From NCBI GenBank assembly GCA_049964835.1, contig JBMFWW010000019.1, positions 1 to 12,152 of the forward strand: a stretch of DNA of 12,152 bases, written 5' to 3'. The translations under genes and the position numbers were made by a program. This document shows positions 3,615 through 12,005 of the stretch, piece by piece. Origin of the DNA: Candidatus Micrarchaeia archaeon. GTDB lineage: Archaea > Micrarchaeota > Micrarchaeia > Micrarchaeales > CABMGC01. The notes under the pieces were generated by a model that saw only the letters and a list, made by a program, of their open reading frames with translations, had not been told where the DNA came from and ran no database searches. How positions within the stretch are numbered: position 1 is the stretch's first letter; each line of letters opens with the position of its first letter.

Positions 3615-3935
3615 CTAGGCAGATGCGTCGAGAGCTTGTTTAACCGTTTCTTCGTTAAGAGAGATTACTCCCACTTGCAGTAGAACTTTACCGCCAATTA
3701 TTGTTGGTGTTATGCTTTCTGTTAGTACTACATTCATCTGTCCATTGTTTAGTAATTCGCTTACTTCGTTAGTTATCCTTAATGCGCTTCCTTTGGCTTT
3801 CGGCTCTGCAATTCCTCTTAAGGTATCTTTTAGTGCTGTTAGCTTTTCTTCATCTCTTTGTTGTTTTTCCTCATCATGTCTAAACAACAGTCTAAAAGCG
3901 CCCTCATCTTCAGCTTTTGAGAACTTTATCACCAC
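3615..3935 (-). CDS. Hypothetical protein
   Basis: 106-codon ORF with GTG start preceded by a GGTGGT SD-like tract, purine-rich coding strand and AT-rich flanks. No family recognised. Confidence 0.65.
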   Translation of the reverse strand: MVIKFSKAEDEGAFRLLFRHDEEKQQRDEEKLTALKDTLRGIAEPKAKGSALRITNEVSELLNNGQMNVVLTESITPTIIGGKVLLQVGVISLNEETVKQALDASA

Positions 3936-8492: not shown

Positions 8493-8726
8493 CTACTTTC
8501 CAGCTACTATATTTTCTGAAACGCTTTTTATTCTTTTATAAGCTACGCTTCCTGTTCTTAATTCTGATCTTGGATCGGCACTCCTAAGAAGCTTTTCAGG
8601 CTCAGTTATTAATAAATGTGAAACACAACCATCTTCAAAATTTAGCATAAGCCCTTTTACATTGCCTATTATTTTACCTTCTGTTGATATTATTTTTTTC
8701 CCATAGAGTTCTGATATCTTTACCAT
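8493..8726 (-). CDS. Stand-alone PRC-barrel domain protein (CdpB-like)
   Basis: ISELYGKKIISTEGKIIGNVKGLMLNFEDG.V...VAYKRIKSVSENIV matches the PRC-barrel pattern; 77 aa. Confidence 0.88.
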   Translation of the reverse strand: MVKISELYGKKIISTEGKIIGNVKGLMLNFEDGCVSHLLITEPEKLLRSADPRSELRTGSVAYKRIKSVSENIVAGK

Positions 8727-8739
8727 TTTAAAACCTTCT

Positions 8740-9279
8740 TTAATTAAGTCTACTTATCTTTTTAGATGCAAAAATTCTTATTATGTACGCATTTAATGTG
8801 TTAATGAACTCCTCTTTATTTTTATTTAATTCTGATATTTCATTATCATCAAAAAGGTCCTTGTTTTTAACTACTAAATCTTCTAGGTACTCTTTAGTCA
8901 TTGAGTAGAATCTCTTGCTGCATGACCCACATCTAAATATTGGCACTACTGGCACATCAGTTATGTTCCAAGGTTCAGTATATTCTAATTCCCTATATAA
9001 AATACCTGAGCAGCTATCACATCTCTTATCTATGCTTGTTTTTTCTTTAGATTGTTTTTCTTCTATTACAAAATCATTTCTGTATTCTTTATAAAACAAT
9101 TCTGGAATTGTACCCTGTTTCATATAAATTTGTGATATGACTCCATGAGTTTTTGAAAACTTTGTCATTAGAATGCCTTTATTTGTTTTTTCATAAATAT
9201 CGATTATATTTATGCCGTCTTTTGTATATTCTTGAGAAAGGTATCTCCCTTCAATATACTTATAAATAAGTTTAGGCAT
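8740..9279 (-). CDS. Hypothetical zinc-ribbon protein (CDSC...CGSC)
   Basis: Two CxxC pairs; DVPVVPIFRCGSCSKRFY resembles the YgiT/MqsA-type zinc finger. Start overlaps the histone 3' end by 8 nt. Confidence 0.75.
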   Translation of the reverse strand: MPKLIYKYIEGRYLSQEYTKDGINIIDIYEKTNKGILMTKFSKTHGVISQIYMKQGTIPELFYKEYRNDFVIEEKQSKEKTSIDKRCDSCSGILYRELEYTEPWNITDVPVVPIFRCGSCSKRFYSMTKEYLEDLVVKNKDLFDDNEISELNKNKEEFINTLNAYIIRIFASKKISRLN

Positions 9280-9487
9280 CCGATTCAGTTATTATATATT
9301 TTTTAATATCTTCTTTAGTTACCTTTTCCCTGCCCTTAGTCTTTGCGTTATTTACTGCAAACTTTGATATTTCATTTGCTTTCTTTTCTAATATCTGTGC
9401 AAGCTCATCTGCCCCATCGTCAGTTATACTAGCACCTAAATAATTTTTCACAAGTTTTTTTATAGAATTTTTAGGTATCTTTGCCAT
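9272..9487 (-). CDS. Archaeal histone-fold protein (atypical, 71 aa)
   Basis: Gapless manual alignment to HMfB: IP..SIKKLVK, ITDD...LA.ILE, A..GR..V..EDI. ATG at 9487 preferred because the track's GTG at 9514 lies in the C' box of the sRNA. Confidence 0.9.
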   Translation of the reverse strand: MAKIPKNSIKKLVKNYLGASITDDGADELAQILEKKANEISKFAVNNAKTKGREKVTKEDIKKYIITESDA

Positions 9488-9489
9488 TT

Positions 9490-9546
9490 TATCAGTACTC
9501 AAGATCTTCATCACATTATATCAGAAGCTTTAAGCTCATCATCATT
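9490..9546 (-). ncRNA. Box C/D 2'-O-methylation guide sRNA
   Basis: Minus strand: box C ATGATGA (9542-9536), guide GCTTAAAGCTT, box D' CTGA (9524-9521), TATAAT, box C' GTGATGA (9514-9508), guide AGATCTTGAGTA, box D CTGA (9495-9492). All four boxes are perfect, with 11- and 12-nt guides. RNA ends are approximate. Confidence 0.9.
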
Positions 9547-9564
9547 ATTTTTAATGTATTAATA

Positions 9565-9580
9565 TATTTAAAGGCTTTTG
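9565..9580 (-). promoter_or_regulatory. BRE + TATA box for the sRNA-histone unit
   Basis: Minus strand CAAAAGCC-TTTAAATA; the TATA box ends about 20 nt upstream of box C, placing the expected start site at the sRNA 5' end. Confidence 0.7.
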
Positions 9581-11804: not shown

Positions 11805-11807
11805 ACT

Positions 11808-11893
11808 GCGCCAGTCATCTAGCCTGGTAGGATACGAGCTTCCCAATATCTAGGAATAAGCTCGACGCTCGGGTTCAAATCCCGACTGGCGCA
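11808..11893 (+). tRNA. tRNA-Gly(CCC) with 13-nt intron at 37/38 (11846-11858); CCA not encoded
   Basis: Acceptor GCGCCAG/CTGGCGC plus discriminator A; D arm ATCT/GGAT; anticodon stem CGAGC/GCTCG; anticodon CCC at 11842-11844; T arm TCGGG-TTCAAAT-CCCGA; BHB central helix TTCC/GGAA. Confidence 0.95.
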
Positions 11894-12005
11894 TAACTGG
11901 ATTTGTATCTTTTAAGTTGTTTATATAATTTATAATTAGGTTATTTTAATTTTTTATAGTCTTCTTTTAACTTTTACATTATATTTTATTATAGTAAATT
12001 TCAGA

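Follow-up and report, generated by a model that had tools for sequence, protein, structure and literature searches.

The window, the whole stretch of 12,152 nucleotides that was analysed from a Candidatus Micrarchaeia archaeon (assembly GCA_049964835.1), carries a short run of genes on its minus strand that begins with a histone-fold gene. This gene (9487-9272, minus strand) encodes a protein of 71 amino acids and is one of three matches to Pfam PF00808 in the genome. The match to this archaeal histone/CBF-NFY family is above the cut-off (E 2.9e-8, 34.3 bits against 21.4), and the score against the NCBIfam model archaea_histone, 44.6 bits, is below the cut-off of 50. The closest solved structure is HMfA (E 1e-5), which is colinear with the protein over residues 1-62. 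The second gene of this conserved unit is a 179-aa ORF with two CxxC pairs (8740-9279, minus strand), whose ATG overlaps the histone stop codon by 8 nt. It belongs to no Pfam or NCBIfam family, and the only likeness found in Atlas is a weak one to zinc ribbons (TM < 0.5). The third gene encodes a PRC-barrel protein of 77 amino acids (8493-8726, minus strand; Pfam PF05239, E 2.4e-8). The 179-aa ORF follows the histone gene in 28 of 30 loci searched by tblastn, and the PRC-barrel gene is found downstream in 27 of the 30.

The box C/D sRNA upstream of the histone gene

By its box architecture, the minus-strand segment 9542-9492 is a genuine box C/D sRNA. Box C (ATGATGA) lies at 9542-9536, with an alternative overlapping register at 9545-9539, and is followed by the 11-nt D' guide GCTTAAAGCTT (9535-9525) and by box D' (CTGA, 9524-9521). 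The K-loop spacer between boxes D' and C' is the TATA-like hexamer TATAAT (9520-9515). Box C' (GTGATGA, 9514-9508) precedes the 12-nt D guide AGATCTTGAGTA (9507-9496) and box D (CTGA, 9495-9492). The 4-nt spacer TAAA (9491-9488), which holds no oligo-T terminator, joins box D to the histone ATG at 9487. An earlier note on this DNA had described four perfect boxes with canonical guides of 11-12 nt on the minus strand and a box D that ends 4 nt before the histone ATG, and both descriptions are accurate. No terminal stem around boxes C and D was seen by eye in this genome. The first 107 nt fold at -7.4 kcal/mol (z +0.57), so that no structure is predicted for the leader, and concealment of the AUG by an RNA fold was rejected.

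The boxes are conserved among relatives. In a set of 28 related loci that was chosen by the D-guide pattern and not by box C, box C reads RTGATGA in all 28 and box D is also kept in all 28. Box C' reads RTGATGA in 25, and the remaining three differ by one base. Three families have retained the boxes and the D guide, with free variation in the D' guide and the flanks, although the invariance of the guide is partly by construction, since both related and public loci were picked by the guide pattern. The D' guide is 8-12 nt long and has 27 distinct sequences among the 28 loci.

A strict four-box pattern matches only twice on both strands of the 805,809-base genome and is absent from each of 40 genomes simulated with a second-order Markov model. 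The other match (C1:79656-79702) comes with a T-run of its own and agrees perfectly with 23S rRNA over 11 bp; C/D guides are therefore in use in this genome. The genes for the protein partners are present as well, with fibrillarin at 261 bits, Nop5 at 163.5 bits and L7Ae at 97.2 bits, all above the Pfam cut-offs. Run by E-value, Rfam places four C/D-box families on the sRNA, the best being sR5 (29.6 bits, E 0.0012), but no family reaches its gathering score there (40-45 bits; 40 for sR5). The homologs of the sRNA in other lineages are likewise assigned to no specific Rfam family, with a best score of 44.4 against a gathering score of 45. Since each archaeal C/D model in Rfam describes one particular guide, the missing match weighs little. 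It does favor reading the motif as a product of chance or a decayed relic, whose boxes are unused and from which no sRNA is produced. The empty simulated genomes (40 of 40), the retention of the boxes and D guide over three families beside a variable D' guide and flanks, and the identical guide found in many other archaeal lineages all speak against that reading, which is exceedingly improbable.

The D guide and tRNA-Leu

The guide target, which the earlier note overlooked, is by complementarity the wobble position of tRNA-Leu and not rRNA. Counted from box D, positions 2-11 of the D guide pair with nucleotides 31-40 of tRNA-Leu, and position 5 faces wobble nucleotide 34, the predicted methylation position. 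Neither guide has a match of at least 10 bp to the 16S or 23S rRNA of this genome; the best has 9 pairs, including G.U.

The tRNA-Leu(UAA) gene of this assembly (contig C3, 52129-52235) encodes the anticodon stem-loop CAGGA-CTTAAGA-TCCTG, which forms 10 contiguous pairs with the D guide, with a G.U pair at nucleotide 34. A UAA tRNA-Leu with the loop CTTAAGA is present in all 30 related loci examined; 28 of these share the complete stem-loop unchanged, and L046 and L055 have a different stem. The tRNA-Leu(CAA), with the loop CTCAAGA, occurs in 28 of 30 loci fetched from relatives. It forms 10-11 Watson-Crick pairs with the D guide and places C34 at the fifth position, so that the relatives have a G-C pair where the tRNA-Leu(UAA) of this assembly has G.U. 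In this assembly, which is 94% complete in 46 contigs, tRNA-Leu(CAA) was not found by anticodon-loop pattern, by 11-mer or by BLAST with the relatives' genes and flanks. Its syntenic flank stops near the end of contig C10, which makes this negative result no proof of absence from the genome. The fibrillarin-Nop5-L7Ae particle would make Cm34 in tRNA-Leu(CAA) and possibly Um34 in tRNA-Leu(UAA).

The tRNA-Leu(UAA) is the only D-guide target found in this assembly. Lui et al. 2018, citing earlier work, describe a Watson-Crick pair at the target position as essential for methylation (PMC6009581). Set beside that statement, the G.U pair of the only target here at the methylated position counts against reading the sRNA as a tRNA-Leu wobble guide. 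In the sRNA upstream of the histone gene of one relative, G025, an A replaces the G at guide position 5. This is the exact change that gives a Watson-Crick pair with U34 of tRNA-Leu(UAA).

The D' guide is probably an orphan, a usual state for tRNA-directed sRNAs. In Pyrobaculum, approximately 80% of tRNA-directed sRNAs are described as single-guide (PMC6009581). Pairing of the D' guide with its own histone mRNA was considered and rejected: against the spacer and the histone ORF at 28 loci, its duplex energies are no better than those of shuffled guides (mean z +0.26).

Guides for the tRNA-Leu wobble position are already in the literature. Three species of Pyrococcus have C/D sRNAs for the first anticodon position of tRNA-Leu(CAA) and tRNA-Leu(UAA) (Gaspin 2000 and Clouet-d'Orval 2001, as summarised in PMC7994747). 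Going by that summary, they share the four boxes with the sRNA described here, and in both cases the fifth base before box D faces nucleotide 34 of the complementary anticodon loop. The exact motif GATGA-N-GATCTTGAGTR-CTGA is also found in Thermococcus-titled genomes. From the shared target and this motif, and not from the published sequences, we infer homology to the named Pyrococcus sRNAs. The Pyrococcus sRNAs are described as free-standing, whereas the sRNA here heads a histone gene. This placement is seen in none of 55 same-guide loci from Thermoplasmatota, Thermococcus and other archaea.

The same nucleotide is also reached without a guide RNA. Eukaryotic Trm7 is a protein-only enzyme for wobble 2'-O-methylation of tRNA-Leu. 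In bacteria, TrmL is described as performing this reaction, also as a protein alone (PMC6313347). The predicted outcome is the same as for the sRNA, Cm34 or a U34 derivative in tRNA-Leu(CAA/UAA), but the archaeal route would be RNA-guided and has no sequence relationship to either enzyme.

Promoter and junction with the histone gene

A histone ortholog is found in 36 of 41 genomes, or 35 when the unpublished G038 is left aside. The sRNA lies directly upstream of it in 33 of these 35: the guide pattern is upstream on the same strand in 32, and G025 has the variant guide. The two exceptions, the same-genus genomes G009 and G010, have the histone ortholog without the sRNA and retain the guide in another sRNA. 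The coupling of sRNA and histone is therefore dispensable. Among public loci titled Micrarchaeota, the histone gene comes right after box D in 21 of 25. In 27 of 28 related loci, 1-21 nt separate box D from the start codon, and the spacer is 4 nt long in 13 of the 28 and 5 nt in five, although the related genomes are not independent samples. The adjacency, which the earlier note had proposed to check in related genomes, is thus borne out, and by these comparisons the junction between sRNA and histone gene shows deep conservation.

Upstream of box C, the minus strand carries the TATA-like sequence TTTAAATA (9572-9565), which ends 22 nt from the box and is preceded by the purine-rich, BRE-like CAAAAGCC (9580-9573). 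This agrees with the BRE-TATA that the earlier note had placed about 20 nt before box C. Of 27 related loci, 23 have an 8-mer made entirely of A and T within the stretch 17-40 nt upstream of box C, and none of the 27 has one in the corresponding stretch ahead of the histone start codon. In related sequences the TATA-like motif ends ~22-24 nt from box C. Transcription is predicted to start at approximately 9546-9542, at box C or 1-4 nt before it, because the usual archaeal TATA-to-start distance is ~26-27 nt, as in N. equitans (PMC3491384). A genome-wide profile of TATA positions, calculated for the frequency of leaderless mRNAs, was too noisy for use.

There is no T-run after box D. The earlier claim that the locus leaves no room for a separate promoter is right only in part for this genome, since the TATAAT loop stands 28-33 nt before the ATG. 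The histone promoter could be this loop (9520-9515, minus strand), giving a near-leaderless or leaderless mRNA and an independent sRNA. The distance is roughly right for a start near 9490. Yet the TATA-like motif between boxes D' and C' occurs in one of 27 related loci, that of this genome, no all-A/T 8-mer is found in that window in any of the 27, and an independent sRNA would lack a T-run at its end. Separate transcripts are quite improbable, and an internal promoter was rejected as a general feature, remaining a possibility for this genome. The proposal of one transcript for sRNA and histone finds support in the shared promoter position (23 of 27 against 0 of 27), the missing T-run, the short gap and the junction kept in 33 of 35 genomes. 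Together they strongly imply that the sRNA and the histone gene share a promoter and are co-transcribed.

Box D also lies at the usual Shine-Dalgarno position of this genome. The 16S rRNA of this genome ends in GATCACCTC. Among 575 long ORFs, 71 have a TGAT that begins at -7 and 26 have one that begins at -8. The TGAT of the histone gene, made of box D and the next T, stands at -7, the position of the 3' part of the Shine-Dalgarno motif, and the earlier remark on the spacing of the box D TGA is in line with this count. Of 28 related junctions, 18 hold a TGAT derived from box D at -7 or -8, and among the remaining 10, five carry GGTG, GTGGT or GAGG as a distinct motif at -8 to -11. The T that follows box D is present in 21 of 28 histone-linked loci and in 15 of 55 free-standing homologs of other archaea. 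Complementarity to the 16S 3' end amounts to only 4 nt (UGAU) in this genome. With box D 4 nt before the ATG, a kink-turn motif is predicted close to the start codon.

The sRNA as the probable leader of a histone operon

The type of RNA and its layout are already known, and the locus is a new example and not a new mechanism. Archaeal C/D sRNAs whose genes touch or overlap an ORF at its 5' end, and which are transcribed together with it, form category 1 of Lui et al. 2018 (PMC6009581), and such sRNAs just upstream of ORFs are also reported by Tripp et al. 2017 (via PMC7994747). As these sources describe them, category 1 sRNAs share with the sRNA here the sense orientation, the shared promoter and a start codon at or after box D, and in both cases maturation by sRNP protection and hindrance of initiation by L7Ae are proposals. 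In Pyrobaculum, two of 17 overlapping guides have a predicted target, and the positions are described as evolutionarily fluid (PMC6009581). Unlike these overlaps, the ORF here begins after box D, which leaves the D guide functional, and the junction persists in three families of one order as well as in the majority of records titled Micrarchaeota.

The explanation that we favor, and consider somewhat probable, is that a tRNA-Leu wobble guide serves as the 5'-terminal element of a histone operon, with the association inherited as a piggy-back. The sRNA would be a methylation guide of ~51-55 nt. Having no terminator of its own, its gene would have become the first part of a unit made up of the sRNA, the histone, the 179-aa Cys-rich protein and the PRC-barrel protein, and a single TATA promoter just upstream of box C would drive all four. 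Release of the sRNA would follow from the bound sRNP proteins, which would protect it while the flanking RNA is trimmed, in line with the general maturation model that PMC7994747 summarises from Tripp et al. 2017. The association with the histone gene would mainly be piggy-backing in a compact genome, and any effect on histone translation would be a by-product and not a dedicated switch. In the work of Tripp et al., expression of a downstream reporter fell significantly when an sRNA overlapped its 5' end (PMC7994747), and the layout before a histone gene is therefore not obviously neutral. The regularity of the tight junction hints at selection beyond piggy-backing, which favors a regulatory role.

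In such a role, a sharper form of the earlier note's idea that sRNP assembly or processing could control histone translation and so couple RNA modification to chromatin supply, one transcript would have two exclusive fates. L7Ae, Nop5 and fibrillarin on the C/D kink-turn would block the ribosome, and free transcripts would be translated with box D and the next U as the histone Shine-Dalgarno element, so that histone output is set by the available free sRNP protein. Control of translation by L7Ae on a 5' sRNA is not a new idea: Lui et al. 2018 raised the possibility that L7Ae, drawn to a 5' sRNA that has not been excised, interferes with initiation (PMC6009581). Daume et al. 2017 (PMC5539422) and Huang et al. 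2019 (PMC6298567) report that L7Ae represses its own mRNA through a kink-turn in the 5' leader. That leader has a kink-turn-forming motif close to the translation start, as the sRNA here does, but it is a dedicated regulatory stem-loop, whereas a complete guide sRNA stands here and binding and repression are putative. The reporter result, the TGAT at the genome-wide Shine-Dalgarno position, its recurrence or replacement by a separate motif across the 28 junctions, and the enrichment of T after box D in histone-linked over free-standing loci all favor regulatory coupling. The 16S complementarity of only 4 nt, the histone genes of G009 and G010 that do without the sRNA, and a junction spacing that is possibly just inherited among relatives that are not independent stand on the other side, and coupling of this kind is a tentative, minority possibility. 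It is rather unlikely that box D has a dual use throughout Micrarchaeota, as tRNA-Leu guide element and as ribosome-binding element of the main histone operon, each transcript becoming either a guide sRNP, with box D locked by L7Ae, or a translatable histone mRNA, with box D paired to 16S rRNA. If true, histone production would depend on how much sRNP and ribosome-assembly protein is free, and the status of the translation apparatus would be hard-wired to the supply of chromatin protein in a cell that has hardly any other regulators.

A stabilizing effect can also be considered. Eukaryotic long RNAs with snoRNA ends are stabilized, and an sRNP at the 5' end of the histone operon mRNA could act as a leader that shields it from 5'-to-3' decay. 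The sRNA does lie at the extreme predicted 5' end, in a layout conserved ahead of a gene that is expected to be highly expressed. An sRNP bound 4 nt from the AUG should hinder initiation and not help it, however, and the arrangement is absent in G009 and G010. Protection from decay is an improbable function.

With tRNA-Leu as its predicted target, a concrete role can be assigned to one of the small number of guide RNAs that these archaea have kept in their reduced genomes; the strict scan of this 0.8-Mb genome yielded just two C/D sRNAs. Its retention here suggests that ribose methylation of the tRNA-Leu wobble nucleotide is hard to lose. The locus is also an unusually stable natural fusion of a guide RNA to the 5' end of an mRNA, maintained across a group of the rank of an order and in the majority of public records titled Micrarchaeota, where the cited literature presents such 5' arrangements as rare, fluid and costly for the downstream gene. 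Micrarchaeota are available in co-culture with Thermoplasmatales hosts. Natural variants exist in the uncoupled G009 and G010, in the retargeted guide of G025, and in several lineages with an inserted, separate Shine-Dalgarno motif. The effect of an sRNP on a leader on translation in archaea is therefore directly testable.

Box C/D sRNA upstream of the histone gene

The box C/D sRNA lies on the minus strand at 9542-9492, immediately 5' of a 71-aa ORF (9487-9272). Re-reading of the minus-strand sequence confirmed it, and the boxes, guides, TATA and ATG spacing described in the earlier note were exact to the base. All of the following elements are on the minus strand. A TATA-like sequence, TTTAAATA (9572-9565), is located 22 nt from box C, ATGATGA (9542-9536). 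Box C is followed by the D' guide GCTTAAAGCTT, the D' box CTGA, a TATAAT D'-C' loop, the C' box GTGATGA and the D guide AGATCTTGAGTA, which leads to box D, CTGA (9495-9492). A TAAA spacer separates box D from the histone ATG at 9487. The 71-aa ORF matches the Pfam histone family PF00808 above its cut-off (E 2.9e-8) and is alignable end to end with HMfA, a histone of known structure (E 1e-5); the NCBIfam archaeal-histone model gives 44.6 bits, slightly below its cut-off of 50.

The strict four-box pattern occurs at 2 sites in the 805,809-base genome (both strands, 32% G+C) and at none in 40 simulated genomes of the same size (second-order Markov). The second site (C1:79656-79702, minus; L031) is a free-standing canonical C/D sRNA whose box D is followed by a T-run, and its D' guide, GACGAGGTATTT, can pair perfectly with 23S rRNA over 11 bp (gene positions ~1927-1937). 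Genes for fibrillarin, Nop5 and L7Ae are present as well. In E-value mode, Rfam placed four C/D families on 9489-9548 (best, sR5, 29.6 bits, E 0.0012), none of which reached its gathering score. Such sub-threshold scores weigh little because those models are built around particular guides.

Two further candidates were noted elsewhere. A looser C/D candidate starts at 88339 on the plus strand of contig C1, with a C' box of ATGAAGA and an 11-nt loop (relaxed pattern). In the window itself, at 3803-3857 (minus), a weak Rfam sR17 match (23.6 bits, E 0.06) is without proper C and D boxes and is probably due to chance.

The wobble nucleotide of tRNA-Leu as guide target

No convincing rRNA match was found for the D guide or the D' guide. 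The genome's only archaeal-type tRNA-Leu found with a YAA anticodon is tRNA-Leu(UAA) (C3:52129-52235, minus; L030, L032), whose anticodon stem-loop reads CAGGA-CUUAAGA-UCCUG. Counted upstream from box D, guide positions 2-11 pair with nucleotides 31-40 of this tRNA. Position 5, which fixes the methylated nucleotide, forms a G.U pair with the wobble U34. A UAA tRNA-Leu with the loop CUUAAGA is present in 30 of 30 related loci; the full stem-loop is identical in 28, and the stem differs in two.

Relatives have a second tRNA matched by the guide. The 11-mer GACTCAAGATC was found in 34 of 41 genomes (33 of 40 once the unpublished G038 is set aside); with the pattern reversed as a control there were 6 matches, in 6 genomes. 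Among the loci fetched with this 11-mer, 28 of 30 are tRNA-Leu(CAA) with the loop CUCAAGA. Over 10-11 bp, every pair between these tRNAs and the D guide is Watson-Crick, and C34 stands opposite position 5. No tRNA-Leu(CAA) was found in the genome's own assembly, but this is 94% complete in 46 contigs and may simply lack the gene. In G025, a genome of a different family, the sRNA before a histone-like ORF (L278, G025:C14) has the C' box GTGATGT and reads GATCTTAAGT, with A for G at position 5. This guide is Watson-Crick to U34 of tRNA-Leu(UAA), just as the usual guide is to C34 of tRNA-Leu(CAA), and this natural variant supports the tRNA-Leu wobble assignment. Lui et al., citing earlier work, state that a Watson-Crick pair is essential at the target position (PMC6009581, section 16), so U34 in this genome is only a putative methylation site. 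At 8-12 nt the D' guide is short, and its sequence varies among the loci (27 of 28 differ), consistent with PMC6009581, in which ~80% of Pyrobaculum tRNA-directed sRNAs are single-guide.

Several tRNA genes carry insertions. In tRNA-Leu(UAA), ~20 nt in the D-loop region consist of a TGGC-loop-GCCA hairpin followed by CGGAAAAA; the insertion is present in 30 of 30 related loci (L033-L061 included) with a variable hairpin loop and is probably a non-canonical intron. ARAGORN miscalls this gene as a tRNA-Arg with an intron. The relatives' tRNA-Leu(CAA) genes (L098-L127) have ~10-13 nt inserted inside the T-loop (GTTCAA...insert...AATC), also consistent with a non-canonical intron. In the window itself, the tRNA gene at 11807-11894 (plus; Rfam tRNA 47.5 bits) has a ~13-16 nt insertion in or near the anticodon loop; ARAGORN's call is Trp(CCA), changing to Gly(CCC) when introns are searched for. 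Contig C30 (944 bases) holds three A+T-rich tRNA genes (Leu-UAA, Ala, Asn), unlike the genome's G+C-rich archaeal tRNAs, and may be foreign or mis-binned.

Distribution of the guide and its link to the histone

With at most 1 mismatch, the pattern TGA-N-GATCTTGAGTR-CTGA is present in 35 of 41 related genomes (35 of 40 without G038, which had none), and its reversed control gave 0 matches. It is single-copy except in G004, where one of the two copies lies at a contig end. An exact GATGA-N-GATCTTGAGTR-CTGA scan of one genome per prokaryotic species returned at least 120 stretches, from which 80 loci were fetched. Among the matches listed, 25 of these are from records titled Micrarchaeota, Micrarchaeia, Micrarchaeales or Micrarchaeaceae, and 55 are from Thermoplasmatota, Thermococcus, Methanobacteriota, Nitrosocaldus or unassigned archaea. 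With a profile made from 27 downstream histones, a histone directly after box D was detected for 21 of the 25 Micrarchaeota-titled loci versus 0 of the 55 others, again among the matches listed. On these counts the guide family is old and widespread, and its fusion to a histone gene is confined to the Micrarchaeota-type lineage; the window very probably comes from this lineage.

Thermoplasmatota-titled free-standing homologs (among L129-L207) share a conserved D' guide, (A/G)CGAACCCTT(T/G). Within 15 nt after box D, a run of at least 5 A is found in 20 of the 55 non-Micrarchaeota loci and a T-run in only 1 (among the matches listed).

To escape the circularity of selecting by guide pattern, the histone ortholog was used as a second starting point. 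It is present in 36 of 41 relatives (35 without G038), and the guide pattern is directly upstream on the same strand in 32 of 35 of these genomes; G025 adds its variant guide. G009 and G010, of the same genus, have no sRNA before the histone (L253, L254). There, the tRNA-Leu guide is the D' guide of another sRNA (L072, L075) with the D' box ATGA, whose D guide, GTATCTAATCCG, is complementary to a conserved 16S region (GGAUUAGAUAC / GGATTAGATAC).

Shared transcript and histone expression

The earlier note held that the sRNA and the histone mRNA are one transcript; its interpretation as a whole is supported in part. Of 27 loci, 23 have an all-A/T 8-mer between 17 and 40 nt before box C, and 18 have a TATA-type motif there. 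At the corresponding distance from the histone start codon, 0 of 27 have the 8-mer and 1 has the motif, namely this genome's TATAAT loop. Box D is 4 nt from the start codon in 13 of 28 loci, 5 nt in 5, and 1, 3, 8, 9, 11, 14 or 21 nt in 9; in the one left over, the start codon probably overlaps box D. No oligo-T run was seen after box D. The next ORF (8740-9279, minus) is Cys-rich, with 179 aa and two CxxC pairs; its start overlaps the histone stop by 8 nt, and it directly follows the histone in 28 of 30 loci. It matches no Pfam or NCBIfam family, and Atlas shows a weak zinc-ribbon likeness. A PRC-barrel gene comes next, and 27-28 of 30 loci preserve this order. The A/T 8-mer position, short box D gap, absence of a T-run and conserved gene order together argue for a single promoter 5' of box C. 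Judged from these features, co-transcription of the sRNA with the histone operon would be the sole arrangement consistent across the lineage.

The note's further proposal, that sRNP assembly or processing could control histone translation, is the less likely reading when sharpened to an either/or switch, though several observations fit it. The 16S 3' end contains GAUCACCUC, and across 575 long ORFs AGGT, GGTG, GTGA and TGAT peak at -10, -9, -8 and -7, respectively; 71 of these ORFs have TGAT starting at -7, and 26 have it starting at -8. In this genome the UGAU formed by box D and the next U is at -7. Of 28 related junctions, 18 place it at -7 or -8, and among the remaining 10 a separate GGTG, GTGGT or GAGG is found at -8 to -11 in 5. 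The base after box D is T in 21 of 28 histone-linked loci versus 15 of 55 free-standing homologs, the latter among the matches listed. In Sulfolobus, 5' sRNA overlap significantly lowered downstream reporter expression, according to section 9 of a review (PMC7994747). However, the 16S complementarity of UGAU is only 4 nt, and the junction counts come from related, non-independent genomes. No structure is predicted for the sRNA-histone leader (z +0.57), pairing of the D' guide with the histone mRNA is not supported, and the histone of G009 and G010 works without an sRNA leader. On these grounds, the most likely reading, of moderate confidence, is that the sRNA would be inherited as a piggy-back on the histone transcript and matured through sRNP protection.

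Each component is already in print. For Pyrococcus, PMC7994747 describes C/D sRNAs directed against the first anticodon base in tRNA-Leu(CAA) and tRNA-Leu(UAA), the same kind of target. Section 9 of that review gives sRNA genes that abut or overlap ORF 5' ends and share their promoter as 7% of genes in six species, often with the start codon downstream of box D. The same layout is category 1 in Pyrobaculum (PMC6009581, section 24), and the discussion of that paper suggests that L7Ae on an sRNA leader could hinder initiation. A limited search of the Micrarchaeota/DPANN histone, fibrillarin and sRNA literature, for which 'C/D' was unusable as a term, found no description of an sRNA-histone fusion; one paper only lists Micrarchaeota as a histone-bearing phylum. 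The novelty lies in this instance and its stability: a guide predicted to be functional, fused to the histone operon across three families and in most public Micrarchaeota-titled records among the matches listed. Its main value is that a clear target assignment and natural variants make the translation-coupling question testable.
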